A stretch of 32,000 nt of DNA. Source: Planctopirus limnophila DSM 3776 (GTDB taxonomy: Bacteria; Planctomycetota; Planctomycetia; Planctomycetales; Planctomycetaceae). The translations under genes and the position numbers were made by a program. This document shows, piece after piece, positions 14,728 to 32,000 of this stretch (its first letter is position 1; each line of letters opens with the position of its first letter). Under the pieces are notes generated by a model. It saw only the letters and a program-made list of their open reading frames with translations. It ran no database searches and was not told where the DNA came from. The stretch is from positions 4,740,001-4,772,000 of the forward strand of contig NC_014148.1 in the NCBI RefSeq assembly GCF_000092105.1, written 5' to 3'.

Positions 14728-14750
14728 AACTTAATTACGCGACTAAAAAT

Positions 14751-14770: not shown

Positions 14771-14814
14771 TTATATCTCTCTTCCTGACTCTTCTCGAAA
14801 GGAATGGCAGTTTC

Positions 14815-16301: not shown

Positions 16302-17049
16302 AAAGTTCTCTCGGCACGCCGCCAATGAAGCGGCTATGACAAGCCCCCGAACATCTTCCCGGCGCATGTGGCTTAAGCAAATGACGGCCACGGCCTGCGG
16401 CTGTGGTATGGTAGGATCTGGTCTCATGAATGCGAATACCCTATTGGGAGAAGAGCCAATGCAAGTCCCTATGCCCACGACGCCACAAGAAGCACTCGAT
16501 CTTCTTTATCACGGCAACGAACGTTTCAGTCGCGGGCAATCGATGGCAGCCCATCGAGATCTGGATCGAGTCAAGGCTGTCGCTCGCAAGCAGAGCCCGT
16601 TTGCCGCTTTCCTGGGATGTGCCGACTCTCGAGTTCCTATTGAGATTGTGTTTGATCAGGGATTCGGCGATTTGTTCGTGACTCGAATTGCCGGGAATAT
16701 TGCTTCGAGTGAGAACATCGGCAGCCTGGAATTCGGAGCACAGATCCTGGGCTCGAAAGTGATCTATGTGCTGGGGCATTCAGCATGTGGTGCTGTAACA
16801 GCCACGATGGAGGGTCGGGAAGTTCCCGGGCAGATCAGCGGCTTGTTCCAGTACATTCGGCCAGCCGTCAAAGCTGCCAAAGGAGATGTGGAAGTGGCCG
16901 TTCGGGAGAACGTGAAGAATCAGGCGATGCTGATTGCGGAATCGTCCCCGGTCATTTCACGACTCGTGCAGAAGAAAGAACTGATTGTCGCCGGCGGCGT
17001 TTACGACCTGCAATCGGGCGTCGTCACACCTGTGGAGATGAGTTTTTGA
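16294..17049 (+). CDS. Beta-class carbonic anhydrase with a twin-arginine (Tat) signal
   Basis: Zinc-ligand motifs CADSRVP and LGHSACGAV are present. The N-terminal TSSRRMWLKQ plus a hydrophobic stretch fits a Tat signal. The ATG overlaps the sbtB stop (ATGTCTGA). Confidence 0.9.
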   Translation: MSEKFSRHAANEAAMTSPRTSSRRMWLKQMTATACGCGMVGSGLMNANTLLGEEPMQVPMPTTPQEALDLLYHGNERFSRGQSMAAHRDLDRVKAVARKQSPFAAFLGCADSRVPIEIVFDQGFGDLFVTRIAGNIASSENIGSLEFGAQILGSKVIYVLGHSACGAVTATMEGREVPGQISGLFQYIRPAVKAAKGDVEVAVRENVKNQAMLIAESSPVISRLVQKKELIVAGGVYDLQSGVVTPVEMSF

Positions 17050-17326
17050 GAGTGTGGTTTGGAAGTTGAGTGGCCGCGCTGAAGTGGGAAGCTTCGCGAT
17101 TTTGTTAGCTGGTTGAGAATGTCGAAGATGATGTACACCACGAAGTTCGGGAGATTAGAGAAGAAAAGGGGCATGGGAGAAGCTCGCTCACAACGATGAA
17201 GGTGTGAGCTCCGTATGGTGAAGGAGCAAAAGCCCCCCTCTAACATCATTGACTCAGCATGGCAACAAGATCACTGTATGACTTGAGCAGATATCTATGA
17301 GAATCAAGTCTTTCTGGTGACAACTC

Positions 17327-17731
17327 ATGAAGCCCTTACGGGTCATCATAGCGGCATACATGGTCGTCATTACTGTCGCTTTCGTATGGACGAAAGCTGC
17401 GTCCGTCTGGATATCGATTCAGATTTCGTTCGCCAATGAGCAGACGATGATCTTTTCTTCGATGGTTGATCAGGCCTCAGAAGCCAGCCAGCAGATGCCT
17501 CCGAACGTTCCAGCGATCATCAGTTGCCTGGATTACACCCGCAGTTACTACCCTCCAGGAACCAAACAAACTGTTGGGTCACCGTCGAGTCAGGTTGTTG
17601 AACGAACACGATCCTTGGCTGAGCGGCAGATGATTGGCATGCTGCGACAGGCGACGAATAAAGATTTCGGTGATGATGCGGAGGACTGGATTATCGAATA
17701 CACGCAAACTCAGCCCTCTGTATCGAACTGA
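17327..17731 (+). CDS. Hypothetical membrane-anchored protein (134 aa)
   Basis: N-terminal TM helix VIIAAYMVVITVAFVW. No family recognised. The stretch is somewhat AT-richer than its neighbours. Confidence 0.5.
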   Translation: MKPLRVIIAAYMVVITVAFVWTKAASVWISIQISFANEQTMIFSSMVDQASEASQQMPPNVPAIISCLDYTRSYYPPGTKQTVGSPSSQVVERTRSLAERQMIGMLRQATNKDFGDDAEDWIIEYTQTQPSVSN

Positions 17732-17770
17732 TGGTCACAGAAATCCCGTAGTGGCAAACAGGAGTGTTTA

Positions 17771-18178
17771 ATGCACTTATTGGCAAGACACTTTGACGGG
17801 AGGACGACTCATCTTCTCGGCTGGGTTCTAGTGGCTGCAAACGGCACAGCGATTATAGAGGCTTCTTGGCGCGATCAAGGAGTCGACAGAGAACAGTCGT
17901 TTGAAATTGATTTTCCTGATGCGAGAATTCGAGAATGCCAAGAAGTACTGGCTCTATTAAAGCCTGTCTACAATGGGTGTGTTGACGGCTTTCCGATCTA
18001 TGAATTATCGGTGTCCGACAACGATCGTGTATTGACAACCAGAGTCTATGAGGGAATCCAATGGCCCAATGCGATCAAGCCAGAAATCGATTCCTTTAGG
18101 CGGATCTGGGAACCCATTGATAAAGAAGTTGAAAAACACCTCGCGATTCCCGGTCGATCTACAAAACGCAAAAAATAA
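17771..18178 (+). CDS. Hypothetical soluble protein (135 aa)
   Basis: ATG preceded by AGGAG (17760-17764) with a 6-nt spacer. No family recognised. Confidence 0.55.
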   Translation: MHLLARHFDGRTTHLLGWVLVAANGTAIIEASWRDQGVDREQSFEIDFPDARIRECQEVLALLKPVYNGCVDGFPIYELSVSDNDRVLTTRVYEGIQWPNAIKPEIDSFRRIWEPIDKEVEKHLAIPGRSTKRKK

Positions 18179-18280
18179 TGGTGGAGTTCTTTTATTGCTA
18201 CAAGAGTTTCTTAAAGGTAGCACTAAACGTGACTATTCCTGGCACGGCGAAACTGTACTTGGGGTCGATAGAGCAGAAGA

Positions 18281-18314
18281 TGGTGCAATCCGTCGGAACT
18301 CCTTGCACCCTACA
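18281..18314. repeat. Copy 1 of a conserved hairpin element, TGGTGCAA-tccgtcggaactcc-TTGCACCCTACA
   Basis: 7-bp stem GGTGCAA/TTGCACC. A near-identical element lies at 29779-29810. It sits 29 nt downstream of the rluD stop on the minus strand. Confidence 0.6.
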
Positions 18315-18342
18315 GGGCTCACAAGAGCTCTGTAAACACACC

Positions 18343-19380
18343 TTAGCGAAGCTTCGACGAGGGTGATTTTTTGGGCTTGATCGCGTGGGTTTTGAGTGTG
18401 TCGAGAGTCTTCTGGAAGTCGGCCGGTAAGGGGGCTTCGAAGACCATACGCTTTTTGGTCACCGGATGATTGAAGGCCAGGCGGCGGGCATGCAGGGCTT
18501 GTCGGTCGATCAAGGTTTCATCGGCTTCTTCAGGAGTTTCCGGAAGTATGTCCGACAGCTTGACGCAGGTTTTCCCTTCATACAGACGGTCGGCAATAAT
18601 CGGATGACCCAGGTGGTGCATGTGGACGCGCAACTGATGCGTGCGCCCCGTCTGCGGCTGAAGTTTCACATACGTAAAGCCGCGAAATCGCTGCTGGACT
18701 TCGTAAAAAGTAGCGGCCTGCCTCGCGTTATCGCCCGGTGGGCAGACCATCATCCGCTCTCGATTGCGGAAGCTGACCCGCACATACGTTTCGACATAAT
18801 CGGCGTCGAACTGCATCTCACCCCAGACAATGGCGTGATACTCTTTCTCGACAGAACGCTCTTCAAACTGGCGGCTGAGATGCTGGTGCACCGTGTTGTC
18901 TTTGGCGACGACAAGCACACCACTCGTATCGCGGTCGAGTCGATGGACAATCCCCGCACGGTACTGGCCGGCCACATCGCTCAAGCTGTCAAAGTGAAAC
19001 TGCAAAGCACCCGCTAACGTGCCGCGATAGTTTCCGCGGCCGGGATGGACAATCATGTTGGCAGTTTTGTTGATCACACACAGATATTCGTCGTCGTAAA
19101 GAATATCGAGCGGAATATCTTCGGGCTGAACGCGCTGATCGGGTTCAGCAGGGAGCGAGAACTCAATCACGTCGTTGACGCGCAGGCGGCGTGAAATCTT
19201 AACGGGCAAGCCATTGACGAGGACTTTGCCCTCCTCGATGGTGCGCTGAAATGCCACCCGGCTAAAGTTGGGATACAGGCGGCTGAGATAATGGTCAATT
19301 CGCCAGCCGTGAGCACGAGCTTCGACGGTGAGCACCAGAGCGGGATTGTCATCGAGACCGAAAATCGAAGGCTCGTTCAT
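18343..19380 (-). CDS. rluD: RluA/RluD-family 23S rRNA pseudouridine synthase with an N-terminal S4 domain
   Basis: Catalytic motif HRLDRDTSGVLVVAK. The N-terminus is S4-like (RIDHYLSRLYPNFSRVAFQRTIEEGKVLVNG), and the C-terminus has HQLRVHM. Confidence 0.9.
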   Translation of the reverse strand: MNEPSIFGLDDNPALVLTVEARAHGWRIDHYLSRLYPNFSRVAFQRTIEEGKVLVNGLPVKISRRLRVNDVIEFSLPAEPDQRVQPEDIPLDILYDDEYLCVINKTANMIVHPGRGNYRGTLAGALQFHFDSLSDVAGQYRAGIVHRLDRDTSGVLVVAKDNTVHQHLSRQFEERSVEKEYHAIVWGEMQFDADYVETYVRVSFRNRERMMVCPPGDNARQAATFYEVQQRFRGFTYVKLQPQTGRTHQLRVHMHHLGHPIIADRLYEGKTCVKLSDILPETPEEADETLIDRQALHARRLAFNHPVTKKRMVFEAPLPADFQKTLDTLKTHAIKPKKSPSSKLR

Positions 19381-19411
19381 GGCAATCTCGTGGGTGGCCA
19401 GTGGGCCGAAA

Positions 19412-19436
19412 AAGAACGATCAGAAAAGAACGATCA
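19412..19436. repeat. Direct repeat AAGAACGATCA x2 (14-nt period) upstream of rluD
   Basis: Two identical 11-mers at 19412-19422 and 19426-19436, 30-55 nt upstream of the rluD start. Confidence 0.5.
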
Positions 19437-19447
19437 AACAAATAGAA

Positions 19448-19468
19448 CAGGCCCGTCAGCCGGGCCTG
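19448..19468 (-). terminator. Probable intrinsic terminator of the gene at 19589-20575
   Basis: CAGGCCCG-tcagc-CGGGCCTG is a perfect 8-bp GC-rich stem. On the minus strand it is followed by T-rich TTCTATTTGTTTGATCGTTCTTTTCTG. Confidence 0.55.
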
Positions 19469-19588
19469 AGATCACACACCAGAATACCACATGCTGAGAC
19501 CAGGGTGTAGCACCTGAAGATCAGCAGCCCAGGTCTTGAACCAGAGACCATCAATCAACCAGCCTGGCGATATGCAGCAACTGGAAAA

Positions 19589-20575
19589 TTATGGCTGTGG
19601 CGGAATCGCGGGGCTGTCTGCTGGCTTGGTGGAAGCCTCGGGAGTGGCGGGCTTTTCAGCCGCTGGAGTTTCGGGCTTGGCTGGTGCCGCTTCGGGCTTC
19701 GATGGTGCGGGAGGAAGTGCAGGATCTGGAGTACCGGCATCCTTGGGAGTCGCGGGCTCTTTGGGAGTATCGGTTGTGGCAGGTGCAGCGGCGGGCGGAA
19801 TATCGCCTTCGGTCGATTTAACGGGTGAATCCGTCGACTTGACAGGCGATGAATTGCCACCCGCTGGCGAAGCAGGAGGAGTCATGCCAGGCAGGTCGAG
19901 CCCGGGAAGACCGAGTGCACCACCTAAGCCATCACGAGGACGGGCCGGTGATTCGGGCTTGGGGTTCTGCTGGCTGTACCATTCGTAGAAGCTCTTGGTT
20001 TCGGGAGTCGCCAGGGCCTTGATCCGTTCATCGGCAATCGGCTTAAAGATCGATTGAGGGAATTCGCTCACCAGTTCTTCGTACTTGGAAATGGCAGGCT
20101 TGGTGTCGGCATTGGAAGTGGCTTCGAGCACGCGGGCCAGACCAAAAAGAGCGCGCTCACGCAGGATATTGGCCGATTTGTTTTCTGCCAGCACCTTCTC
20201 GAACCCCACCTGAGACTCCTTGAACTCGCTGTTCGCGGCAGCGCGATTGCGGTTCACCTGCAGCATCCCTTCGTCAAAGCGAAGTTCAGCGGCGCGCAAG
20301 CGGGCCCATTCACCGGGCGGTGTGCCGGCATAACGCTCGGCCAATGCTTCCATATCGGCAGGAAGTGTCGTCCCTTCCACGTCAGACCAGGCGGCTGCGA
20401 GCCGGGCGGTTTGATTGGTCGAATAGACAATGTAGCCAATCGACCCGATCACGATGGCAACCAGAACAGCCACGAGTGTCAGGCCAAAGCGTTCGAAAAA
20501 GCCACTCGACTTGAGAAGGAGCTTTCCGAGTTCACGTTCCTGCAGTTGAGATTCAATCGATGGTTCAGAATTCAT
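19589..20575 (-). CDS. Membrane-anchored helical-repeat (YfgM/TPR-like) protein with a long P/A/T-rich C-terminal tail
   Basis: One N-terminal TM helix (LTLVAVLVAIVIGSIGYIVY), then about 170 aa of helical-repeat-like sequence, then about 120 aa of P/A/T/E low complexity. The family assignment is tentative. Confidence 0.55.
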   Translation of the reverse strand: MNSEPSIESQLQERELGKLLLKSSGFFERFGLTLVAVLVAIVIGSIGYIVYSTNQTARLAAAWSDVEGTTLPADMEALAERYAGTPPGEWARLRAAELRFDEGMLQVNRNRAAANSEFKESQVGFEKVLAENKSANILRERALFGLARVLEATSNADTKPAISKYEELVSEFPQSIFKPIADERIKALATPETKSFYEWYSQQNPKPESPARPRDGLGGALGLPGLDLPGMTPPASPAGGNSSPVKSTDSPVKSTEGDIPPAAAPATTDTPKEPATPKDAGTPDPALPPAPSKPEAAPAKPETPAAEKPATPEASTKPADSPAIPPQP

Positions 20576-20834
20576 GGAGCTTAATTCATCGCTGAAGAGA
20601 ATGCTGTCTCAATACGACAGCGCACTCGTGGCGCACATGCCCACAAGATCGGTAAAAGCATAAAACTCTGATAGGGCAAGCGTCAAGCCAAGCGAGCGGG
20701 CCATTTCGCCGCAACTCCAAGTGAAATCGGGAGTTGCCAGCAGAAACAGCCTGAATCACTTTCGCCGATCGCCACTTTCTCAGGTCTTCATCATCCCTGC
20801 GAGCAAAAGACTTTAGTTCCAGTGCCATCGACTG

Positions 20835-21899
20835 TTACGTCAACGACTTACCAAAATCTCCCCGCACATCCCGCCACATCGAATGAATGTGGTTAGCACC
20901 ATCCTGGGTGTTGTTGTATTCGATGATGAACGTCGGCCCCTGAACGCGATAATGGTGCGGCTGATACTGCTTGATCCCACCCCACCAGGCAAAGTGAACC
21001 TGATCCCAGCCCGAACGCTCAATCTCGGCGAGTCGTCGCTGAGCCACTTCTTCCGGCATGTTCGCCAGATACTCGCCCACGAGAGCTCGCACTTTTTCGA
21101 CGGATTCCGTCCCCAGTTCGGGGAGAAGCACTCCGATCGGAGCTTCGACCACAGGTTGAGGGGCTCCCGGCCCGGCAACATCTTTGGGAGCTTCCTGCGA
21201 AATCGTGGCTTTCGCACGCCCGGATTCACTGGCCAGAGTGATCGCCTGACGGGCAAAGTCTTCTTCGTTGCCCAGCACCCTCAAAACGCGCCCCGGAACA
21301 GATTCCATGGTAGCCGGGTTACAGCCATAGAACTCGGGTGTGGTGGCCACAATCCGGTCGCCATCGAGTGTGTAGTTGAGCGAGAGATGATGACCTTCGA
21401 TGCGATAACCCCATGCTCCCATGCCGGGGGTACCGAAGATGCTGAAGTGGTATTGTTCTGGATCGCGACGTTCGCGGCGTTTTTCGCGATCACCAGCCTC
21501 GTACAAAAAGAGAACTTCTTCGAGACTCATGATCTTGATGGCCTGATCGTAGCCCGTCTCGGTGAGGCCGCTTTTCAGCAACGCAAAGGCGGCCTTGCGG
21601 GCAGGCCCTGTTAACGCGCGCAACTTGATCCCTTTGCGAGGCTTGGGGATAAAGTGCCAGTTAAGACGCTCCGGGTCATCGTAAGCGAACTGTACGAGAG
21701 CCCGTTGTTCGTCCGTGAGGGATTGCAAGAACTTGCTGGCGGCAGTCACCATCCGCGGGCCCGCCACTGAGGGTTGTGCAGCGGCAGTTTCGTTTGCCAG
21801 ATTGGCATTGCTCGCCAAAGCCGTGCTCGAAGAAGCCAATCGCAGCGCACCATAACCGGCTGCTAATGTTCCCAGAAACAATCGTCGGTTGAATTCCAT
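20835..21899 (-). CDS. DUF3500-domain protein with a Tat-type signal
   Basis: YHFSIFGTPGMGAWGYRIEGHHLSLNYT is the hallmark DUF3500 string. I prefer the start at MEFNRRLFLGTLAAG (21899) over the track start at 22001. Confidence 0.8.
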   Translation of the reverse strand: MEFNRRLFLGTLAAGYGALRLASSSTALASNANLANETAAAQPSVAGPRMVTAASKFLQSLTDEQRALVQFAYDDPERLNWHFIPKPRKGIKLRALTGPARKAAFALLKSGLTETGYDQAIKIMSLEEVLFLYEAGDREKRRERRDPEQYHFSIFGTPGMGAWGYRIEGHHLSLNYTLDGDRIVATTPEFYGCNPATMESVPGRVLRVLGNEEDFARQAITLASESGRAKATISQEAPKDVAGPGAPQPVVEAPIGVLLPELGTESVEKVRALVGEYLANMPEEVAQRRLAEIERSGWDQVHFAWWGGIKQYQPHHYRVQGPTFIIEYNNTQDGANHIHSMWRDVRGDFGKSLT

Positions 21900-22300
21900 G
21901 GTGCGATTCCTTGGTGTTAACGAAAAGGCTTGATAGTTATCGGGAGAGATTCGTCGGCGTGAAGTTTCGTGGAGTGTGTGAGTGTTCCAGGCTGGGGCCA
22001 ATTCTCAATCATCGATGTCAGGCAATAGACTCTGCCAGTCACAGATCCAGCGAATAACAGACTCATCTGGTGACAGTGTTATTGGGAACCGTGTTATTGG
22101 TGACAAAATCGGCAGGGAGTACATGCGACCAGTTTTCAGAGGTGAAAATCGGTCGGTGAAGCTTTATCGTTTAAATCAATGATTTTCGATGCGTCATGAC
22201 GTTACTCCATCGAGCAGGTCATGACAACCACTTCCTGGCCAACTCCCTCAGGGCCGACAAATAATGCCCGACGGAATTCCTGATTGCAGACGATTTAACC

Positions 22301-23242
22301 ATGCTCAAACGACGTGAATTCATTGCGACCACAACGCTGGGTGCCGGACTATCCGCTGCAACCGCACTCTCCTGCCAGCCTGCCCAGGCGGCGATCGAGC
22401 AGGGGCGACCGTTTCGCTATTGTCTCAATACGAGCACGATACGTGGCCAGAAGCTGCCCATCGTCGAAGAGATCAAGCTCGTTGGCGATGCGGGATACGA
22501 TGGGATCGAGCCCTGGATTAACGAAATCGATGCTTACCAGCAGCAGGGTGGCTCACTCCCTGATCTTTCGAAGCGCATTGCAGATGCAGGCCTGACGGTC
22601 GAGAGTGCCATTGGGTTTGCCGCCTTTTTAGTCGACGACCCGGCTCAGCGGCAGAAGGGGCTGGATGAAGCCCGCCGGTGCATGAGGCTGGTGAAGGCGT
22701 TGGGGGGATCGAGAATTGCCGCCCCTCCTGTGGGTGTGACCGATCGAACCGATATGAATCTGGATGTGCTGGCCGAGCGGTTTGCCGCACTTGTGCAAGT
22801 AGGGCGCGAAGAAGGCGTGTGGCCACAACTCGAACTTTGGGGCTTCTCGAAAACGTTGCATAAGCTGGGCGAAGTCGCTTATCTGCTGGCCCAGTGCGGC
22901 GATGTCAATGCCCTGGCTCTCTTGGATGCCTATCACATTTACAAAGGTGGCTCCGAATTCGGTGGCCTGGGAGCCTTTGCAGGGAACCGCATGCAGTGCT
23001 TCCACATCAATGATTATCCGGCCGAACCACCACGCTCGGAAATCAAAGACGAACATCGTGTTTATCCCGGCGATGGCATCTGCCCGCTGACTGAAGTTCT
23101 CACGATTCTCAAAAACAGCGGGTTTCGGGGTGCGATATCGCTCGAACTTTTTAATCGCAGCTATTGGCAGTTGCCAGCCGATCAGGTGGTGAAGACCGGT
23201 CTGGAAAAGATGAAGGCCGTTGTGGCCAAAGCCGGTTTGTAG
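22301..23242 (+). CDS. Sugar-phosphate isomerase/epimerase (xylose-isomerase-like TIM barrel) with a Tat signal
   Basis: The N-terminus MLKRREFIATTTLGAGLSAA...AQA fits a Tat signal. The body has typical AP-endonuclease-2/xylose-isomerase-like segments (GYDGIEPW, HINDYP, ISLELFN). Confidence 0.8.
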   Translation: MLKRREFIATTTLGAGLSAATALSCQPAQAAIEQGRPFRYCLNTSTIRGQKLPIVEEIKLVGDAGYDGIEPWINEIDAYQQQGGSLPDLSKRIADAGLTVESAIGFAAFLVDDPAQRQKGLDEARRCMRLVKALGGSRIAAPPVGVTDRTDMNLDVLAERFAALVQVGREEGVWPQLELWGFSKTLHKLGEVAYLLAQCGDVNALALLDAYHIYKGGSEFGGLGAFAGNRMQCFHINDYPAEPPRSEIKDEHRVYPGDGICPLTEVLTILKNSGFRGAISLELFNRSYWQLPADQVVKTGLEKMKAVVAKAGL

Positions 23243-23482
23243 CCACAATTTCCCTTCAGCCGGCGGCTGCTTCCGATACGAAGCGACTGACTCGTGATGT
23301 GTGGCTGTTGCCCGTCGTGCTGTCGGAAAGATGAATTGTCGTTGAAGGTTTGACGTCTTCCTATCGACCGCATGGCCCGCATGGCATATCGTTTCCAGAC
23401 CAAGTGCCAGACACGCCTGCTGCTGTGGCCTGCAGGCAGATCGACCACGACCACCTGGATCATCAACTCGGGAATCTTCACT

Positions 23483-24394
23483 ATGCAACGGGTTGTTCTT
23501 CTGGAACACAATCTGGCAGAAGCCAGCCGCATGGCCCGATTGCTGGCCGAACAGGGTTTTGAAGTCGAGATCACGAAAACCCCTGTCGAAGCGATTCAGG
23601 CCTGCCAGAAGTCACCACCTGATCTCGTGGTGACCGATATGCCCGAAAAGCGGACTGATGCCGACGACATGTCATTCATCAAATGGCTGCATCAGCATCA
23701 GCGGCAGGTTCCGATTGTCCTCTCGCTTTCGCGCAATGAAGAAATCTGTGCCCTACAGGCTTTAGAGACCGGAGCAGTCAGCTACATCCGTAAACGATTA
23801 CTCGAACAGGATCTGCCGCAGACACTTAAGAATACTTACGGCTTACTGCAACGCATGACGGGGCAGAAGCGCATTCGCAAAGCCCTCGTGCGGGCTCATT
23901 TTCAGTATCAACTGGAGAATGATCCCACGCTGACGCCTGCAGTTCTGGCAGGGGTGGAAGACGAACTCAAGCTGACGAGTCTGTTCGAACGGGCCGACAT
24001 TACCCGCATGATCATCGGCCTGCATGAAGCGATTGATAATGCGATCTTTCATGGCAATCTCGAAGTGAGTTCGGCTCTGCGCGATGCCGGTGCCACGAAG
24101 AGCTATTTTGAACTGGCCGAAAGCCGCCGGCATTTATCCCCTTATCACGAGCGGCATGTCGATTTTGAGATGCAGTTATCCCGCGAAGGGGCGGAGTTCC
24201 TGATTCGCGATGAAGGGCCGGGCTTCAATCCACAGGCCCTGCCCAATCCGACAGCGGCTGCCAATTTGGAACGCCCATCAGGCCGGGGCTTACTGCTGAT
24301 CCGCAGCTTTTTCGATGAAGTCGAATACAGCCCTACGGGAAGCGAACTCCGCCTTAAGAAAAAAGCCACCCGCAGCGCAAGCGAGGTGAAGTGA
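23483..24394 (+). CDS. Response-regulator receiver fused to an RsbW/SpoIIAB-like HATPase (serine kinase/anti-sigma-like) domain
   Basis: Receiver: VVLLEHN...DLVVTDMP...PIVLSLS...YIRK. C-terminal N-box HEAIDNAIFHGN, G1 IRDEGPGFNP, G2 SGRGLLLIRSFFDEV. I prefer the start at ATG 23483; the track ORF begins at 23372. Confidence 0.75.
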   Translation: MQRVVLLEHNLAEASRMARLLAEQGFEVEITKTPVEAIQACQKSPPDLVVTDMPEKRTDADDMSFIKWLHQHQRQVPIVLSLSRNEEICALQALETGAVSYIRKRLLEQDLPQTLKNTYGLLQRMTGQKRIRKALVRAHFQYQLENDPTLTPAVLAGVEDELKLTSLFERADITRMIIGLHEAIDNAIFHGNLEVSSALRDAGATKSYFELAESRRHLSPYHERHVDFEMQLSREGAEFLIRDEGPGFNPQALPNPTAAANLERPSGRGLLLIRSFFDEVEYSPTGSELRLKKKATRSASEVK

Positions 24395-24549
24395 TGGATC
24401 GCCAGAATCCCTCGGTTTGTAACTGTCCATAAATCAGTTCACTAAGATTTTTGTTGACATAGGATGGAGTTCTGGCCAAGTTAGTAAGTGCGCTCTCGAC
24501 TGCACGTATTCTTCGGCAGCGGGAAACTCTCATGCTTGCGTCCTCTGTT

Positions 24550-24583
24550 CCAGACTCCAGACTCCAGACTCCAGACTCCAGAC
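24550..24583 (+). repeat. Heptanucleotide microsatellite (CCAGACT) x4 plus CCAGAC
   Basis: Read directly: ccagact ccagact ccagact ccagact ccagac. It ends 40 nt upstream of the GTG start of the DUF1573 gene. Confidence 0.95.
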
Positions 24584-24623
24584 CGTCACCAGGCACCGCT
24601 CCCTGTGGGCAGGATCCATCTGG

Positions 24624-25049
24624 GTGTGGGTGGTGCCACCCGCCATCATCCCGTCGTTGGCCATCGTCACCGCCTGGCGGACAGGTGGCGTGACGGCGGC
24701 CCGCATGTGGCTGCATGGTCAGGCAGTGCAACTGGAGCCGACAGTTCTCGTGGTGCCGGTGGAAATACTTGCCCCCGACCAGACAGGCCCGATGAACGTG
24801 GTCGATTATCCCGCTCCCTTCGTGACGTTGCGAAATCTGCAAGGGAAGCCTTTGCAGGTGCTGGGTGCCAAAGAGTCGTGCGCCTGTGCGACCGCCACGT
24901 CACTACCGGCAACGATTGAGCCCTTCGGCACGTTGCGCATCCCCTTGCGGCTGAGTGAAACAGCCCGGGGGACACAGACACTGACATTCTTCACCGATGC
25001 CCCTACCACGCCGCGCCTGACGTGCCGGGTCGAGTTTCGGGGCGAGTGA
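24624..25049 (+). CDS. DUF1573-like membrane-anchored beta-sandwich protein
   Basis: N-terminal TM VVPPAIIPSLAIVTAW. The core FVTLRNLQGKPLQVLGAKESCACATATSLPATIEPFGTLRIPLRL matches the DUF1573 pattern (..N.G..PL.I..v..SCGCT....i.PG....i.v.f). GTG is the first canonical start in this frame after the stop at 24420. Confidence 0.7.
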   Translation: MWVVPPAIIPSLAIVTAWRTGGVTAARMWLHGQAVQLEPTVLVVPVEILAPDQTGPMNVVDYPAPFVTLRNLQGKPLQVLGAKESCACATATSLPATIEPFGTLRIPLRLSETARGTQTLTFFTDAPTTPRLTCRVEFRGE

Positions 25050-25080
25050 GACAGACCTTTCCCAATCCTCGATGCGAGGT

Positions 25081-25103
25081 CGGAGTGGTGTGTCACCACT
25101 CCG
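25081..25103 (+). terminator. Perfect hairpin CGGAGTGGTG-tgt-CACCACTCCG between the DUF1573 gene and the Cys-rich gene
   Basis: 10-bp perfect stem with a 3-nt loop, followed by cgatagTTTcccTggTT. It lies 30 nt before the ATG at 25134. Confidence 0.45.
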
Positions 25104-25133
25104 CGATAGTTTCCCTGGTTGAAGGAGTGCGCG

Positions 25134-25433
25134 ATGAATCTTTGTTTGCGTTTTGTGACAAGCACAGTGATGGGCCTTAATCTGGCAGCGATCCTGCTTG
25201 CCGCCATTCTGGCATTACCGGCTGCCTATGCGGATGAAGACCCCATCGATGAAGAGGGTGGGGATGAGGGAGGTACAATTGGTCTCGTTCCAGAATGTAC
25301 GCGAAATTGTGACTGCGTCACACTTCCAAACGAAAATGGCGAACCCTGCAATTCATTTGGTCCTGGCTATTGCCTGACGCAATGTTTCTGTGTGGGCTCC
25401 ATTCCCACGCGTCTTCAATGTCACAACCAGTAA
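25134..25433 (+). CDS. Small secreted cysteine-rich protein (99 aa precursor; 8 Cys in the last 45 residues)
   Basis: Strong SD GAAGGAG (25121-25127) lies 6 nt before the ATG. The Sec-type signal ends ALPAAYA|DED. An acidic stretch DEDPIDEEGGDEGG follows, then C-x3-C-x-C-x10-C-x7-C-x3-C-x-C-x9-C. Confidence 0.7.
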   Translation: MNLCLRFVTSTVMGLNLAAILLAAILALPAAYADEDPIDEEGGDEGGTIGLVPECTRNCDCVTLPNENGEPCNSFGPGYCLTQCFCVGSIPTRLQCHNQ

Positions 25434-25480
25434 ATGGTTCAGATAGCTTTTCTATGACCGAAAGATTCCAGAATGGTGGT

Positions 25481-25515
25481 ACAGGCGATGCGAGGTGTTA
25501 CCGAACATCGCCTGT
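25481..25515 (+). terminator. Hairpin ACAGGCGATG-(15 nt)-CATCGCCTGT downstream of the Cys-rich gene
   Basis: Perfect 10-bp stem 48 nt after the stop. No U-tract. Confidence 0.4.
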
Positions 25516-25630
25516 GCTGCCCAATTAACACATAGGCAGCAAAAGAGAATCTGCAAGGTAACTAGATGCTTTCAATCTATTCTCAGACTTGTGTCGTAAA
25601 ACCGATGATCACTTCTCGATTCTTTGGTGT

Positions 25631-26812
25631 ATGAAAACAACTATGCAAATGATACTCAGTCAGCTAATGACCAGGCAAATCTTCGTACTTGTTTTATCTT
25701 CATGCTGCCTAATGTCATTTACGCATTCCTCTAAATGTCATGGAGAAGATGGAATAACAGACGCCTATGTTCAAAAGATCGTGGAAGGCCATAAGAATAT
25801 TTGTGAGATTCGTAACAATAGTCTAATCAGTCTGCGATATATGAAGCGATCAAAAAGGTCGCCTGCAGTTCTAGCAACAAAGATATGGAATATCGACGAG
25901 AAGTTTAAAACTCATCAACTCGAAATACCTGGTGCCCCTTCTCCAGACATTATGATAGACGACACAAGATTGGAGAAAGATCCTGATGCAGTAAGGGTTG
26001 CCACAGAAGAATACGAATTTTCGTTTCACAAAAAGCCCACAATTGTTAACGGCCAACGCCAACCTGGACCGCTGATTCTATCGGCAACAACTATCGAGGC
26101 CCAACAATTGAATTATTGGCAGGAAAGAATGCAGGAAATGTTGGCGCAGCATGTATGGGGGGCAACTACGTTCTGTGGAAAGAATTCGCAGAATTTCTTT
26201 AATGAACCGTCAACGAGCTATATCTCTTACGATTGGAAAATGTTGTCTTTTGAATGCAAAACACTCCAGATTGATAAGCTGCCAACTGGGGTGTTGAGAA
26301 TGAATTTTTCAGTTCATGCCGAGATGTTGAATGGCCGCAAGGAAAAGCAGATCCTGGATGACGTACTAGCCAGCGTAGATTTCGATCCGATGAATTCTTA
26401 TCGCGTCATATCATCAGATATGACATCAACATGGAGGTGGGTACCACAGAAGGGAAATTTGGGAGACAGGTGGTGTCGATTCCGAGTGGAAAACGAATAT
26501 AGTGATTCATTTGGTCAGGGAATTATTCCGAAAAGAGTTTTAGCCCAGGAGTGGCAGGCAACAAGTCAGGATGGATTGAACACGACGCCATTCGCCATCT
26601 ATGAATACCTTATCGACAAGGTGGAGTTTGGCACTGTCACACCGGCCGATTTTCGCGGGGAACCGTACGGAGTGCCCGCTTCGCTCATTGAGCAGGACCC
26701 CCTAACTCCACCGGCCGCATGGTGGTGGCCCTGGCTCTGTGGGCTGTTGGGTGTCAATGCACTCCTGGGCCTCATGTGGTGGTTTAAACGTCGGCGAGAG
26801 TCGATGGCATGA
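25631..26812 (+). CDS. Unrecognised-family protein, paralogue 1: N-terminal signal/anchor, about 330-aa ectodomain, C-terminal TM helix plus WWFKRRRE tail
   Basis: Clear paralogy with 26856-28040 ([26 protein letters not shown]; [16 protein letters not shown]; IDKVEFG/IDRVEFG; EPYG). I prefer the start at MKTTMQM (25631); the track ORF starts at TTG 25589. It is AT-rich relative to its neighbours. Confidence 0.7.
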   Translation: MKTTMQMILSQLMTRQIFVLVLSSCCLMSFTHSSKCHGEDGITDAYVQKIVEGHKNICEIRNNSLISLRYMKRSKRSPAVLATKIWNIDEKFKTHQLEIPGAPSPDIMIDDTRLEKDPDAVRVATEEYEFSFHKKPTIVNGQRQPGPLILSATTIEAQQLNYWQERMQEMLAQHVWGATTFCGKNSQNFFNEPSTSYISYDWKMLSFECKTLQIDKLPTGVLRMNFSVHAEMLNGRKEKQILDDVLASVDFDPMNSYRVISSDMTSTWRWVPQKGNLGDRWCRFRVENEYSDSFGQGIIPKRVLAQEWQATSQDGLNTTPFAIYEYLIDKVEFGTVTPADFRGEPYGVPASLIEQDPLTPPAAWWWPWLCGLLGVNALLGLMWWFKRRRESMA

Positions 26813-26855
26813 GTACTCGCTATGTATCGCGTTAGGGAACGACGAGGTCTCTGCC

Positions 26856-28040
26856 ATGGAAAATACCTTCATGTTATTGAGTCGATGTGACCATCAATGC
26901 CTGTCTCGACGACTCGTACTTGTTCTGGTGGCTATGATCGTCATGGCCGCAGGGGAAGAGTCGCAATCGCTCTTTGCAGAAGAAGGAGTCGATTGGCAGG
27001 CTCGGGTTGTCGCAGGGCATGAACGCATTCGCCGGCAGCGGTCCAACAGCATTGTCTGGTTAAGGCAGGCGCGGCCGGGGTGGAAGCCGCCGTTCACCGA
27101 GATCACGAAGATCTGGCACCTCGATGGGAACTTCAAGTTTCACACGTTTGAGGTGCCCGACCTGACGACAACGGCCGATGTGGTCGACGACGTGAAACTG
27201 ATGAAAGATCCGTTCTCAGTGCGGATCGTGACACCACAATTTGAATTCGGACTCCGTCGGCTCTACAAAGAAGTCGACGGAGTGCGGGTGCTGGATCGCT
27301 TGCGTCGCACCACGCTGTCGATCGATGGCGAGAAGCTGGAGATGTGGCAACGGCGCATGAGCTGGACAATGTCCGAACATGCCTGGTCTTCGACGACGAT
27401 GTGCCACCTCGAATCGAGCGGCCTGTTCGCCCAACCTCCCAGGAACACCAATGCCTTCGGCTGGACAGTTGATAAGTTCACCGTCGGCCCGGTTGCGTTC
27501 GAGAAGCTTTCTTCGGGATTAGTGCGTATGTCAATTGCAACACACAGCGAAATGACAGATGTGCGAAAGAAACAGATCGTGTCGGATGTGGTCGAGGCCA
27601 CGGCTGATCTTGACCCCGCCCACAACTATCGCGTCGTCGAATCAGATTACATAGCGACAGGTAGCCAAAAGGTTCCCGGAAAAGAGGCGGCCCCTGCCTG
27701 GCATCGAGTCAGGATCGTTAACGAATACCGGGCGGGTTTTGGTCGTGATGTGTTCCCCACCCATGTTGTCACCCAGAATTGGAGCAGCAAGGAGCGTGAT
27801 AAGCTTTATGGGGAACCAAACTATAGCGACGAATACTTTATCGACAGGGTAGAGTTCGGCGAGGTGCGGGAATCCGACTTCAGGCCAGAACCTTACGGGA
27901 TCCGCCCCGAAACCCTGGAGATCGACCCTTTGCCACCGCCGACATCCTGGTCGGTCTATGGAATCTATGGCGGTGTCATCACCTGTGTGTTGATCGGGCT
28001 GGCATGGTGGTTCAAACGTCGGCGGGAGAGACTGGTATGA
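26856..28040 (+). CDS. Unrecognised-family protein, paralogue 2: same architecture as paralogue 1
   Basis: I prefer the start at MENTFMLLS (26856), because the track start at 26739 would overlap paralogue 1. Hydrophobic N-terminal anchor [14 protein letters not shown]. The C-terminus is [21 protein letters not shown]. Confidence 0.7.
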
Positions 28041-29014
28041 AGACTCTAAAAACGTGGAGCCGAAAGCGAGGAGACTCGGTGCGAGCCGGTTTCACACTCA
28101 TCGAACTGCTGGTCGTCATCTTCATCATTGCGTTACTGATAGCGTTGTTGATTCCTGCTGTGCAGATGGCCCGGGAAGCGGCCCGGCGAACGGCCTGCCG
28201 GTCGAATCTGAAGCAGTTGGCACTGGCTCTGCATACCTATCACGAGCGGCACCAGGTGCTGCCGCCGGGAACGCAGATTGATGATGTCAGGCCGCCGCGG
28301 GATGTTCCCGGCCGGGGGGCGATCCGCTTCACGAAGCACTTTCCGTGGACCGTGATGATCCTGCCGGATATCGATCAGGGGGTGATGTACGCGCAATTCA
28401 ATTTCGATCTCGATTGCCAGCACGACCATCGCCCGCTCACGAGCCAGCAACTGAAGATTCTGCAGTGTGTTTCCGATCCTGCTGCAGGGCAGCCTGTCTA
28501 TTGGGATCGACCTTATTATGAAGGGCCGTGGGGTAGCAATAACTACCTGGGAGTTTCCGGCACCAATATGGCGACTTCGAAAAATTATGCCTGGCAATGT
28601 GCCGAGTATGATCGAGAGGCGGGGAAGGCACCGATCCAAAGCGGATTACTCTACGAAAACAGCAATTGCCGATTGCGGGACGTGACCGATGGCACCAGCC
28701 AGACTCTGCTTTTGGGAGAGCGAGGTGTTGTGCAGCAATGGGGAAAATGGGGTGGCGCCGGTGTGGAGCAAAGGTGCCCCTTTGGTATTGGCGATACGGT
28801 CCTGCCGGGAACAATCGACGATCAGTTATATCCCGGTGGGTTGCGTGAGCGGCAGGAGACGATTTCGGATCGATTGTTCTGGTGGAGCTGGCATGGTGGA
28901 GTGGTCCATATGGCATTTGCCGATGGATCGGTGCGTGGAGTTTCTGTTTCGACAGATCGTGGTGTGTTGACGGCATGGAGCACGCGGGCAGGTGGTGAAG
29001 TGGGGATCGAGTGA
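28037..29014 (+). CDS. DUF1559-family prepilin-like (type II secretion pseudopilin-like) protein
   Basis: Prepilin cleavage/methylation N-terminus [52 protein letters not shown]-terminal [15 protein letters not shown]. The ATG at 28037 overlaps the upstream stop (ATGA). Confidence 0.9.
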
Positions 29015-29090
29015 GTGGTGTAAGTTAATAGAGTCGTTCCGTATCGGGGGTAGCATGACCCGGAAGGCCCAAAAAATCAAAACACAGCGG

Positions 29091-29135
29091 AAGGGCGTGG
29101 GCATTGGTCGTCACTTGATGGAAGGCCACGCCCTT
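29091..29135 (+). other. Long-loop hairpin AAGGGCGTGG-(25 nt)-CCACGCCCTT between the DUF1559 gene and the second DUF1573-like gene
   Basis: Perfect 10-bp stem followed by T. It lies about 55 nt upstream of the ATG at 29191. Confidence 0.35.
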
Positions 29136-29190
29136 TCGCAAAGCCTTCAGGGACGTGCCACACGGCAGTTTGTGATACAGAGGGAAGACG

Positions 29191-29661
29191 ATGTTTTTGC
29201 TATCCAAGATGAAGTTCGGGACTCTGCTGGTATGTCTGGCGGGGATCGACACTGCTGTGGCGATCTGTCTGTTCTGGCCGACAACGCCACCTGTGGTGAT
29301 CCAGTCTGTGCTGGATCTGGGAGAGGTTGTCGAAGGGACGGAGGTGCAGCCGGTCTTGACGATCAGAAACACCACTTCACAGCCCATCCGCTGCGTGGGT
29401 GCCGACGAGGCGTGCGGCCTGGGTTGCTTCCATGCCGAGGATCTACCGGCTGTGATCCCTCCTTATGGAGAGCTCAAGGTGACGTTATGGTTTGGTGCCC
29501 CTTCACTGAACTCGTTGCGAGAGCGGAAAGCGATTGGTGACCGGGCCGAGAATGAAATGACGTTCTATTTCGATGCCAAAGGCCACGCCCGAAAACCAGT
29601 CAAGCTGACCTGCAAGGTGATCCCCAAAAGTGAGCCGGGCATGATCCACAAGAATTCGTGA
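29191..29661 (+). CDS. DUF1573-like membrane-anchored protein (second copy, diverged)
   Basis: N-terminal hydrophobic anchor. LDLGEVVEGTEVQPVLTIRNTTSQPIRCVGADEACGLGCFHAEDLPAVIPPYGELKVTLWF follows the DUF1573 layout with a variant Cys motif. Confidence 0.6.
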   Translation: MFLLSKMKFGTLLVCLAGIDTAVAICLFWPTTPPVVIQSVLDLGEVVEGTEVQPVLTIRNTTSQPIRCVGADEACGLGCFHAEDLPAVIPPYGELKVTLWFGAPSLNSLRERKAIGDRAENEMTFYFDAKGHARKPVKLTCKVIPKSEPGMIHKNS

Positions 29662-29778
29662 GCACCGTAGTAGTAGTCGTAGGGTCAGCTATGTGGACCA
29701 TGTTCCGCCCACCACTACCTGCGATATCTTCAAAAGTAGGATACATGCCAATGCACCAATTGGACCATCCATTATAGC

Positions 29779-29810
29779 TGGTGCATTCCGTGGACTCCAT
29801 GCACCCTACA
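29779..29810. repeat. Copy 2 of the conserved hairpin element, TGGTGCAT-tccgtggactcc-ATGCACCCTACA
   Basis: 7-bp stem GGTGCAT/ATGCACC. It lies 34 nt downstream of the stop of the minus-strand gene at 29844-30308. Compare 18281-18314. Confidence 0.6.
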
Positions 29811-29843
29811 TAATACTTACCCGCGACACCAATCACAGGGACT

Positions 29844-30308
29844 TCACTCTTCGATGCGCCGCAATTTGACCGGCACCGTGAGCTGCGCGGTGGGATAGCC
29901 GCGTTCCGCCAGTTGCATGTATTCGGATTCGCTAAGAGTGGTTGCCGGCAGCGACTCAAACCCGTCGGCAGTGATTTGGAACCGCCACGAGGGCAGATGG
30001 ATGAACCAGGTGTTCTCCCAATGACTGCGAGAGCCGAAGGTGAGACACTGTGTGACGAGTTCCTCGGCGTGGCCGTTTCTGTCTGTCGTCAGTGTGAATT
30101 CACGGGCTTCACAATCGGCGCAAAGCCCACCCCGCTCCGCCCGGATATGAACCATCGCACCGGGGATCGGCTCACCGGTCGCCGCATCGACCACGGCGAA
30201 CCGCACTCTCAGATCAGCATGCCCCACCCATTTTGTACTGATGTAAAGAGGCGAACCAAGCACCACCGCCAGCCCGATCACAGGGAGCATCAGCGCCAAT
30301 CGACACAC
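29844..30308 (-). CDS. Membrane-anchored hypothetical protein with a carboxypeptidase-regulatory-like beta-sandwich signature
   Basis: N-terminal TM LALMLPVIGLAVVLG. RVRFAVVDAATGEPIPGAMVHIRAE...LTTDRNGHAE fits the V.D..G.PI.GA.V......TD.NG pattern. The assignment is tentative. Confidence 0.55.
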   Translation of the reverse strand: MCRLALMLPVIGLAVVLGSPLYISTKWVGHADLRVRFAVVDAATGEPIPGAMVHIRAERGGLCADCEAREFTLTTDRNGHAEELVTQCLTFGSRSHWENTWFIHLPSWRFQITADGFESLPATTLSESEYMQLAERGYPTAQLTVPVKLRRIEE

Positions 30309-30375
30309 CGCACCTCAACCGTTGGTTACCTACGGATCCTGCTTCTCTTCTGCGTACTCACCCTATTTCGTCTAT

Positions 30376-32000
30376 TCACAATTGTGTCAGAACTCGATCA
30401 ACGAATTGTGTACTCGACGCACGGACGAGCATTCGATCACAGAGTGTTGTCAAAACGCTAGAGACTTTTCCTGATTCACTAAGTTCCTCAAGAACTGCTG
30501 TAATCAACATGGTATTTTTCTGCCTAACCCCATCGATATACCCTCGCCTCTTACGTGCCTGCTTTTCCGCAGCCTCCCATACGCTTTCACCAAAATCACT
30601 CTTGACTGACTCAAAGATACATTTCGGCCAGCATACAAACTCATCCTTAAAAACAATATCTTTCGGAAACGACGGATGATCTGGAAATCCAAGCAGAGCA
30701 AAAAGACACTTGTTATCTCGCTCATGGCCTTTACGATTACTCTTGTCATCTCCATCAGTATCGAAAACAGCAAAATATGGAATACAAAGCTGTTGTGAAA
30801 TGACAATTGGCCTACTCAAGTTTGATTTACCTATCGCAACTACGAAGTGGCACCCATATTTGCGAAAGTCTCTCCATCGATTGGTAACTTTGAGGTGAGT
30901 CGCAATGAAGGCGACATCCTCAACTCCTTCAACAAGAACAGCAAATTTTGAAAAATACATCTCTCTAAGTGATGGTTGCATGATCTGTTCCAATGATGTC
31001 ATCACTACCGATGGGAGATCAGGCTTCGCCCCGAGTGCGCTAGCAATTGCATTCTCGTATTCAACAAAGCTTGTGCTCGCAACCAAAGAGCATTTGTCGT
31101 GTGAATGCTTTCGAACCACTCGCACATTCTCAAACCCCCTCGCGCTCACAAAATATGGACTATGCGTACTAATCATGACTTGTGAGTTTGTGCTGACACT
31201 CTCGGACAGTTCCTGAAGCACATCCGCAATATGCATAGCCTGAGACGGATGTTGATAGAGTTCCGGTTCCTCCATGCCTAGTATCAGCGTTGGTCCACTT
31301 TCTCCACCGCCCATCGCAAGTTCATGAAGGAGCGCAACGAGGAAAGCTCGTTGCATGCCATGCCCAAGTCTTGCAACTTCGCCAATAAAATTATCCTCTC
31401 CCAATGATGCTCTCGCTACTGGCTCCTGCACCACAACAGTTTTATTTGGGTCAAAGTACCAGGATAACTGTAGATTCGCATTGGGATTTGCCCATTCACG
31501 TAGTCGTTCTTGTATGTTCCCGCTGAGTTCGTCAAGAGCGGATTTTTCACTATCAAGCAGTTCCCTGTACTGCTTTTCCAATCCATTTCTTAACCGTGCA
31601 ATCGACTCCTTAAAACTAACCTTTGTTCGGATGGAACGCTGAAACAACTGACCGAGCGCTGTTTTACTTCCTTCCTCTTGTTCTGTTGATGCCTCTTTTA
31701 CAGCGGGAATATAAACCCATTGAATGTATTTGGAGAGAAGATTTGATCCTTTGGTGAACCCAAAAAATTGATGCGCCGATTCAATCAAGCTGCATAATTC
31801 TGGATGGGATTCTTCATATGCTCGAAGTGCGGCAACACGACTTGGTCCTGTCGTAGCATTTGGTAATTCTGAATAGGTCTTTTGAATGTCATCATAAATC
31901 TGTTTTAGCTCTGCGGCTTTTTTACCTTCTTCGTCGGCTTTAAAATATGGAGAAAAGTCTTCCATAACCATTCGCTGGCCGAATTGGCGAACTTCCGCAT
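30376..32000 (-). CDS. OLD-family ATP-dependent nuclease (ABC-type ATPase plus Toprim); the N-terminus lies outside the window
   Basis: Signature-like LGHGMQRAF, Walker B TLILGMEEPELYQHP, H-loop MISTHSPYF, Toprim glutamate AVLVEGVEDVAFI and DxD FAVFDTDGDD. The frame stays open to nt 32000, so Walker A is not visible. It is AT-richer than the flanking DNA. Confidence 0.8.
   Translation of the reverse strand, partial: AEVRQFGQRMVMEDFSPYFKADEEGKKAAELKQIYDDIQKTYSELPNATTGPSRVAALRAYEESHPELCSLIESAHQFFGFTKGSNLLSKYIQWVYIPAVKEASTEQEEGSKTALGQLFQRSIRTKVSFKESIARLRNGLEKQYRELLDSEKSALDELSGNIQERLREWANPNANLQLSWYFDPNKTVVVQEPVARASLGEDNFIGEVARLGHGMQRAFLVALLHELAMGGGESGPTLILGMEEPELYQHPSQAMHIADVLQELSESVSTNSQVMISTHSPYFVSARGFENVRVVRKHSHDKCSLVASTSFVEYENAIASALGAKPDLPSVVMTSLEQIMQPSLREMYFSKFAVLVEGVEDVAFIATHLKVTNRWRDFRKYGCHFVVAIGKSNLSRPIVISQQLCIPYFAVFDTDGDDKSNRKGHERDNKCLFALLGFPDHPSFPKDIVFKDEFVCWPKCIFESVKSDFGESVWEAAEKQARKRRGYIDGVRQKNTMLITAVLEELSESGKVSSVLTTLCDRMLVRASSTQFVDRVLTQL

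Follow-up and report, generated by a model that had tools for sequence, protein, structure and literature searches.

A strain-exchanged cassette in a DUF1559-linked envelope gene block of Planctopirus limnophila: a candidate locus for a secreted peptide and its binding protein

What joins six consecutive plus-strand genes of the freshwater bacterium Planctopirus limnophila DSM 3776, Plim_3704 to Plim_3709, which are annotated as hypothetical proteins or domains of unknown function (DUF)? The genes lie in a 32,000-nucleotide stretch of contig NC_014148.1 (positions 4,740,001 to 4,772,000), hereafter the window, whose own numbering is used throughout. A sequence-only reading of the window had described them as an uncharacterised envelope block built around a pseudopilin, and nearly all of its observations were confirmed. 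All six open reading frames (ORFs) were found, as were the 8-Cys secreted miniprotein, the two diverged paralogues of ~393 aa, the DUF1559 prepilin-like protein and the receiver/RsbW-like kinase gene and 7-nt microsatellite placed upstream, and no enzyme domain was recognised in any of the six by Pfam or NCBIfam searches. What that reading missed was the main feature of the locus, its allelic polymorphism, together with the coding position of the repeat in other strains. Judged from strain alignments, a low-GC cassette is replaced wholesale between strains, and it spans exactly the predicted exported parts of two adjacent proteins, the miniprotein and the first paralogue. We propose, with a probability of roughly one in three, that the locus encodes a strain-specific secreted peptide of the bacteriocin or recognition type and its cognate binding or immunity protein within a Planctopirus-restricted envelope operon. 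The coordinates of the features are given in Table 1.

Table 1. Features of the Plim_3704–Plim_3709 block in the window (TM, membrane helix)
Feature	Position	Strand	Description
Whole conserved unit	24342–29817	+	Delimited by comparative breakpoints
Heptanucleotide microsatellite (TCCAGAC)x5	24549–24583	+	Five perfect copies (Tandem Repeats Finder, TRF)
Plim_3704	24624–25049	+	DUF1573-like immunoglobulin (Ig)-fold protein with weak N-terminal anchor; accessory, not core
Hairpin 1	25081–25103	+	Gap between gene 1 and miniprotein gene; perfect 10-bp stem, 3-nt loop; free energy (dG) -20 kcal/mol, z -3.2
Plim_3705	25134–25433	+	Predicted Sec-exported 8-Cys miniprotein with acidic linker
Hypervariable low-GC allelic cassette	25189–26602	+	Mature part of miniprotein, gap, ectodomain of variable paralogue
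Hairpin 2	25475–25521 (perfect part 25481–25515)	+	Gap between miniprotein and paralogue genes; 16-bp stem; dG -31.6 kcal/mol, z -4.7
Plim_3706	25631–26812	+	Variable tail-anchored paralogue: signal peptide, LolA-like body, C-terminal anchor
Conserved C-terminal module of Plim_3706	26603–26812	+	EYLIDKVEFG...DPLPPP-WW-TM-KRRRE; right-hand recombination anchor
Plim_3707	26856–28040	+	Constant tail-anchored paralogue, modelled as LolA/LolB-like open barrel
Plim_3708	28037–29014	+	DUF1559 prepilin-type protein; ATG overlaps preceding stop
Hairpin 3	29087–29139 (perfect part 29091–29135)	+	dG -36.7 kcal/mol, z -6.0
Plim_3709	29191–29661	+	DUF1573-like Ig-fold protein with N-terminal anchor

The block was compared with nine related Planctopirus-type loci (L001 to L009). 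P. ephydatiae (L007) carries the same six genes in the same order and genomic place as the window, and the two sequences are approximately 93% identical and collinear over 14172–25188 and 26603–29809; no alignment was obtained between these two segments. In other strains, the breakpoints fell at 25188–25316 on the left and at 26587–26673 on the right. The left boundary of the cassette lies just past the signal peptide of the miniprotein, and the right boundary leaves approximately the last 65 codons of the first paralogue outside. The G + C content was 0.443 in the window cassette versus 0.561 in the flanks, and every allele had 43–50% G + C. Synonymous sites in the cassette were saturated (synonymous divergence, dS, 1.5–3.0, as against ~0.2 in the flanks), with a ratio of nonsynonymous to synonymous divergence (dN/dS) of 0.11–0.38, and the constant genes were under clear purifying selection (dN/dS 0.04–0.23). 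Because dS is saturated and dN/dS is low, the alleles are best explained as old functional lineages exchanged by recombination rather than as decaying or newly hypermutated sequences. A diversity-generating retroelement was also considered and is unlikely, since the divergence spans the whole segment with saturated dS and no reverse-transcriptase Pfam match was found among the ORFs scanned.

The secreted partner in the cassette, Plim_3705, has a clear Sec signal (AYA/DE) and a mature part with eight Cys residues. At least seven alleles of the miniprotein were found, in which the leader is conserved, the Cys frame is fixed (C-x3-C-x-C...C...C-x3-5-C-x-C...C) and the mature loops are hypervariable. 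Two leader types occur, and they assort independently of the mature type, giving a leader/mature mosaic. No match to the miniprotein was obtained in Pfam, NCBIfam, PADLOC or PHROGs at E values up to 10. In P. hydrillae JC280 (L005), a poly-G frameshift breaks the miniprotein gene and the barrel paralogues are intact. The frameshifted G-run, in the region L005 7085–7400, encodes a Gly-rich linker, and once the frame is corrected, the mature part reads as an intact 8-Cys allele. The frameshift could reflect a second slippage-prone tract, a real pseudogene or a homopolymer sequencing error.

The partners encoded downstream, Plim_3706 and Plim_3707, are paralogues over their full length (34% identity; E 3e-86). 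The start codon of Plim_3706 is uncertain because its exact 393-aa form is missing from the protein collection. Among strains, proteins of the variable class (Plim_3706 type) have bodies that are 20–55% identical and C-terminal modules that are 77–94% identical, and the module of Plim_3706 shares ~91% DNA identity with two different paralogues of L001. Members of the constant class (Plim_3707 type) are 93–97% identical between strains and are missing in L002 and L003, in which a single paralogue directly overlaps the DUF1559 ATG. P. hydrillae (L001, L005) has three paralogues, the second of which is a barrel of the b type without its own miniprotein; in L009, a b-type barrel stands directly after its own miniprotein. 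The six barrel types, in one to three copies per locus, and the miniprotein alleles together form a natural allelic series.

Relatives of these paralogues are few. A word-index search with Plim_3707 returned only two; when 1.84 billion cluster representatives were searched exhaustively by profile, five real clusters of the family were recovered; and among 185,579 species genomes two loci were detected, one in P. hydrillae and one in a metagenome-assembled genome of ‘Planctomyces sp.’, both of the Planctopirus type. The paralogues had no sequence match in Pfam, NCBIfam or the PDB even at E 10, and none in PADLOC or PHROGs; profile searches reached no characterised sequence family, which bears out the earlier description of the block as uncharacterised. 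An AlphaFold2 (AF2) model of Plim_3707 built on an alignment of eight sequences (predicted local distance difference test, pLDDT, 74; predicted template modelling score, pTM, 0.68) consists of an N-terminal signal helix, a beta-rich body and a C-terminal helix at residues 363–393. Its best Foldseek match was PDB 3bk5, described as a ‘putative outer membrane lipoprotein-sorting protein’ (E 9.5e-6; probability 1.0). Further matches were to RseB, LolB, LolA and LprG (probabilities 0.1–0.9; TMt 0.37–0.44) and to ependymin-related proteins, and nothing was matched among viral structures. Because these template modelling scores are modest, the LolA-type assignment holds at the fold level and with moderate confidence. 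The tail-anchored proteins of ~390 aa are a new, Planctopirus-restricted family with a predicted LolA-like fold. Plim_3707 resembles LolA, LolB, RseB and LprG in its modelled fold and shows no relationship to them at the sequence level; it differs from them in its length of ~390 aa, its C-terminal membrane anchor and its lack of a lipoprotein-sorting or sigma-E context. RseB is a precedent for protein binding by a LolA/RseB-like fold.

Three other assignments for these proteins were rejected. The name DUF4381, given by NCBI to the P. ephydatiae orthologue, goes back to a weak match to the membrane helix only (E 0.089), and a match to Phage_holin_2_1 (E 0.0066) likewise covers only the C-terminal helix. 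A third idea, that the C-terminal module is a sorting signal of general use like those of PEP-CTERM or sortase systems, was rejected because, in the profile search of the 1.84 billion representatives, the module was confined to the paralogue family.

The placement of the hypervariable segment raised a different possibility, namely that the locus defines pherotypes, with the miniprotein as a strain-specific extracellular or periplasmic signal, the variable barrel ectodomain as its sensor and an output through the constant membrane partners, possibly reaching the upstream receiver/RsbW-like kinase. As in the Staphylococcus agr system, the hypervariable segment runs from the mature peptide into the extracytoplasmic part of the membrane protein encoded next, cutting both genes internally at domain boundaries and leaving the leader and the membrane module constant, and a Response_reg + HATPase_c_2 gene precedes the block in four loci. 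The agr likeness stops there: the variable protein of the Planctopirus locus has no kinase or other signalling domain, an AgrB-like processing enzyme is absent, and the peptide would be a four-disulfide miniprotein. The cytoplasmic tail of the barrels, basic and only ~8 residues long, carries no signalling domain, the block of P. hydrillae stands without the regulator gene, and orphan extra barrels suit immunity better than sensing. A pherotype locus is, on this evidence, quite unlikely.

The constant end of the operon is formed by Plim_3708. This protein carries a DUF1559 domain (PF07596, E 2e-42, 146.6 bits; cut-off 23.3), an H-X9-DG tail (TIGR04294, 26.6 bits; cut-off 19) and the prepilin motif RAG/FTLIELLVV (PF07963, E 6.2e-7; TIGR02532 over its cut-off). 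It thus shares the G/FTLIE N-terminus, the domain and the tail of the DUF1559/H-X9-DG prepilin-type proteins. It is 95–97% identical between strains (dN/dS 0.07–0.11). The ATGA overlap that the sequence-only reading had taken as a sign of a functional link (28037–28040, the stop of Plim_3707 and the ATG of Plim_3708) is present, and a 4-nt overlap between barrel stop and DUF1559 ATG is retained in every strain, even in L002 and L003, in which another paralogue allele adjoins it. This retention supports a functional link and translational coupling between paralogue and pseudopilin. DUF1559 is the largest paralogous family of P. limnophila; of its 68 reported copies, Plim_3708 among them, two are essential (PMC10632474). 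No function assigned to the family was found in the literature searched. The closest known systems also include the GspG-like pseudopilins of type II secretion and type IV filament systems, but the block described here is without an ATPase, platform or prepilin peptidase gene. To our knowledge, neither a LolA-like tail-anchored protein nor a Cys-rich miniprotein is known as a pseudopilin accessory.

The coupled pseudopilin also fits an envelope or surface structure associated with a pseudopilus, for instance an adhesin or a target of phages or predators, whose diversity would be kept by frequency-dependent selection and in which miniprotein and barrel would be structural, without the specificity of a peptide and its binder. 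A hypervariable, low-GC, recombination-exchanged cassette would be expected of such a structure, a variable 7-nt repeat in gene 1 (the Plim_3704 homologue) points to a contingency locus, and a defence gene lies next door in the window strain. The C-terminal membrane helix and cytoplasmic basic tail, however, should make the barrels face the periplasm from the inner membrane, and it is the pseudopilin, expected to be exposed in such a structure, that is conserved best of all components. The pilA groups of Pseudomonas aeruginosa (tfpO, tfpW-Z) offer a comparison: there too a pilin-type gene stands beside alternative accessory cassettes in a conserved locus, but in Planctopirus it is the pilin-type protein that is constant (95–97%) and the accessory genes that vary. 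We regard a surface structure as unlikely.

Outside the genus, a DUF1559 search revealed a distinct subgroup at 42–48% identity, well over the generic level. An adjacent tail-anchored protein of 360–390 aa and equivalent build was found in four of four independent contexts, and a signal-peptide-bearing Cys-rich miniprotein in all three contexts that can be judged. These tail-anchored proteins are built like those of Planctopirus: a signal at the N-terminus and a body of ~300 aa, then a proline-rich/tryptophan juxtamembrane motif and, last, a membrane helix with a basic tail. The gene order in L016 is that of Planctopirus (miniprotein, tail-anchored protein, DUF1559); in L011 and L013, the order is DUF1559, miniprotein, tail-anchored protein, a C39-like peptidase/rhodanese gene and MauE. 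When 786 ORFs were searched with hmmsearch, the out-of-genus tail-anchored proteins ranked at the top with E values of 0.17–0.84, which are not significant; the parallel with Planctopirus is therefore architectural. A metagenome scan with the out-of-genus family yielded just one additional locus. The modules span 1961–5187 in L011, 7586–10828 in L013 and 1597–4834 in L014; each combines the miniprotein and tail-anchored protein with a Peptidase_C39-like/membrane/Rhodanese protein and MauE, and those of L013 and L014 adjoin a transposase or serine recombinase. The C39-like/Rhodanese protein and MauE look like a thiol/disulfide maturation set for the miniprotein.

This parallel permits a wider proposal, which we put forward tentatively as a possibility: a new class of planctomycetal envelope system, in which a DUF1559 subgroup and a tail-anchored LolA-like barrel would bind, export or display a disulfide-rich miniprotein; in Planctopirus, the system would have turned into a strain-identity locus, shuffled by recombination and in part phase-variable, that serves kin discrimination or peptide warfare. 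The same parallel bears on the opposite view, that there is no integrated system and that lineage-specific envelope genes merely sit at a recombination hot spot, their synteny reflecting close genome relatedness. Every full locus belongs to a single genus, at ~93% DNA identity, where synteny is expected anyway, and no component has a known function, as that view would have it. Every gene is under purifying selection, however, the 4-nt coupling survives allele replacement, the unit has moved as a block in P. hydrillae, and an equivalent triad stands beside the DUF1559 relatives of 42–48% identity in unrelated contexts. A mere aggregate of genes is rather improbable in the face of these observations.

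In the peptide-and-binder scheme that we favour, the core of the system would have three parts: (i) a miniprotein rich in disulfides and exported by Sec; (ii) between one and three LolA/LolB-like barrels in the periplasm, each anchored to the cytoplasmic membrane through a C-terminal helix with a short basic tail; and (iii) a prepilin-type DUF1559 protein whose gene is translationally coupled to that of the last barrel. Strains would swap the cassette by recombination in the leader-coding sequence on the left and in the last ~65 barrel codons on the right. The variable miniprotein and the variable barrel ectodomain would form an allele-specific pair of ligand and binder, additional barrel genes would encode orphan binders, and export or display would be the task of the pseudopilin. 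The scheme builds on the gene anatomy, polymorphism, selection regime, fold and coupling described above; binding, toxicity or recognition, and the role of the pseudopilin are what we infer. It is favoured because it best accounts for the orphan barrels, the strain with a broken peptide, the leader/mature mosaicism and the C39-type neighbour.

The gene arrangement is that of a polymorphic cassette: a secreted protein, conserved in its export part and variable in its mature part, is followed by a co-varying gene (the co-variation being suggestive only). It resembles the cdiA-CT/cdiI cassettes of contact-dependent inhibition (CDI), which likewise have a conserved export part, a variable mature part, a co-varying neighbour and orphan downstream copies. 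Broken secreted genes with intact partners, and low-GC cassettes between conserved flanks, are also common to the Planctopirus locus and to CDI- or bacteriocin-type cassettes. The likeness is limited by differences: here the leader is of the Sec type, the partner is a large barrel with a constant C-terminus, and no toxin or immunity domain is recognisable.

Several observations weigh against a peptide and its cognate binder. No toxin, immunity or receptor domain was detected in the miniprotein or the paralogues by Pfam, NCBIfam, PADLOC or PHROGs searches, and, for an immunity protein, a 390-aa barrel is large. The miniprotein is not cationic in its Cys-rich part, and its AF2 model (pLDDT 47) is unusable. 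A Mantel test of miniprotein against first paralogue gave r 0.50 (p 0.07) with six alleles, which is suggestive only, and the co-variation is not separable from physical linkage. No assembly ATPase, platform protein, prepilin peptidase or secretin gene lies within 24342–29817. Comparison of the Planctopirus barrels with the out-of-genus tail-anchored proteins gave hhalign probabilities of 4–8%, which are not significant, and the out-of-genus parallel stands without a baseline of generic DUF1559 neighbourhoods.

If the locus does encode a peptide and its binder, no kin-discrimination or bacteriocin-like system would have been described in Planctomycetota before it, and the LolA-like fold would have a new use; if it belongs to a wider envelope-system class, a function would for the first time be assigned to a DUF1559 protein. 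The locus is a compact entry point to DUF1559 in a genetically tractable model organism. Plim_3704 to Plim_3709 were absent from the literature searched, apart from one published paralogue-group table in which the group of Plim_3706 and Plim_3707 has 0 essential, 1 non-essential and 1 unclear member, so the pair is not scored essential. The pseudopilin has defined partners, and the natural allelic series predicts strain-specific phenotypes.

The two outermost genes had been described as DUF1573 proteins that bracket the block. Plim_3704 and Plim_3709 are indeed related (33% identity over 90 aa; E 1e-12), and both carry the UniRef label DUF1573, but neither reaches the gathering cut-off of 26.1 bits for Pfam DUF1573 (PF07610): the scores were 16.0 bits (E 0.012) for Plim_3704 and 22.0 bits (E 1.7e-4) for Plim_3709. 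For this reason they are referred to here as DUF1573-like only. Plim_3709 also matched HYDIN Ig-like under the Pfam cut-off (E 2.6e-4). Both genes are under selective constraint, with dN/dS values of 0.13 for Plim_3704 and 0.04–0.10 for Plim_3709. A homologue of Plim_3709 was found at all Planctopirus loci; in P. hydrillae, a deletion of ~200 bp takes out the N-terminal half of gene 1. When translated from the GTG at 24624, Plim_3704 has an N-terminus that is just weakly hydrophobic, a caveat to the N-terminal signal or anchor described for each of the six proteins. The two DUF1573-like proteins carry the motifs SCAC and CGLGC, and weak matches to the OS_HP2 (seleno)protein family were obtained at 24624–25049 (E 0.085) and at 29191–29661 (E 0.0039); there are hints that these Ig-like proteins could be thiol-redox active.

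These genes bear on the proposal of the sequence-only reading that the six genes form one fixed system for binding or uptake around the pseudopilin, with the DUF1573-like genes as integral brackets. Six co-oriented genes, all with export signals and including the coupled pseudopilin, would agree with it, as would the gene order kept in P. ephydatiae. The arrangement is not fixed, however: the number of paralogues varies from one to three by strain, and half of gene 1 is missing in P. hydrillae. The out-of-genus modules examined contain no DUF1573-like genes, which speaks against their being part of the unit, and nutrient uptake does not predict allelic hypervariability, so that an uptake role leaves the recombination-swapped low-GC cassette unexplained. 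We consider such a system very unlikely.

The microsatellite upstream of Plim_3704 occurs in five copies in the window, four in L007, four in L008 and three (two of them perfect) in L003 (compared sites: window 24423–24660; L003 9036–9080; L007 9362–9450; L008 6403–6491). In the latter three loci, the tract lies within an in-frame 5′ coding extension of gene 1 whose start codon is ATG in L003 and GTG or TTG in L007 and L008, the frame differing per strain. The extension puts a basic n-region ahead of the hydrophobic segment. An open frame begins at 24423 in the window, yet no in-frame ATG, GTG or TTG precedes the GTG at 24624. The tract resembles a contingency tract because each 7-nt copy gained or lost shifts the frame, and it combines a repeat unit not divisible by 3 with a position in a 5′ coding region and a strain-variable copy number. 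This suggests phase variation, with (TCCAGAC)n as a candidate translational phase switch for Plim_3704; it would be a rare phase-variation candidate in Planctomycetota.

Perfect hairpins had been reported in three gaps of the block, and these proved to be the only three with stems of at least 10 bp in the 32-kb window. Since 1.45 hairpins are expected by chance in the whole window, their number is ordinary and their placement is not. An 8-bp stem of hairpin 1 is kept in six of six other loci. In the gap between miniprotein and barrel, five of seven alleles have strong hairpins that are not homologous to one another, which argues for a conserved role after the small gene, for example attenuation or transcript stabilisation. 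Stable hairpins behind small genes probably set transcript ratios. None of the block hairpins has a T-tail, promoter and terminator consensus sites were no more numerous in a scan than they are after shuffling of the sequence, and the only two Rfam matches were sub-threshold and implausible on biological grounds. Hairpin 3 sits in a 161-nt spacer (29022–29182) that is present or absent by strain: it is 96% identical in L006, 76% identical in L007 and L008 with a 7-bp stem core kept, and missing in L001, L003 and L005. A miniature inverted-repeat transposable element was rejected for this spacer, which is an indel rather than a repeated mobile element, because no further copies were found in the window or the fetched loci.

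The extent of the unit was delimited from the P. hydrillae loci on the left, where homology with L001 and L005 starts at 24342 and the context differs, and from L001, L005, L007 and L008 on the right, where homology ends at 29806–29817. By Pfam, the gene upstream of the block is Response_reg + HATPase_c_2. In P. hydrillae, this receiver/kinase gene is replaced, with only its last ~50 nt retained, and the block lies behind two Lectin_C genes (L001 3373–3700; L005 6530–6850). To the right, 29810–32000 is a lower-GC, strain-specific region that P. ephydatiae lacks. It contains, on the minus strand, a gene for a small CarboxypepD_reg-like protein (29844–30308), also present in P. hydrillae and L006, and an OLD/AriA/GajA-like ATPase-TOPRIM defence gene (30376–31971) that may extend beyond the window end. 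Elsewhere in the window, a 1.27-kb low-GC insertion at 17069–18343, with two small ORFs of 134 aa and 135 aa, is missing from L003 and L007. Approximately 16 kb from the block and separated from it by unrelated genes, a 1469-aa secretin with five Secretin_N repeats and a Secretin domain is encoded on the minus strand (4552–8961); it is a possible outer-membrane conduit for pseudopili.

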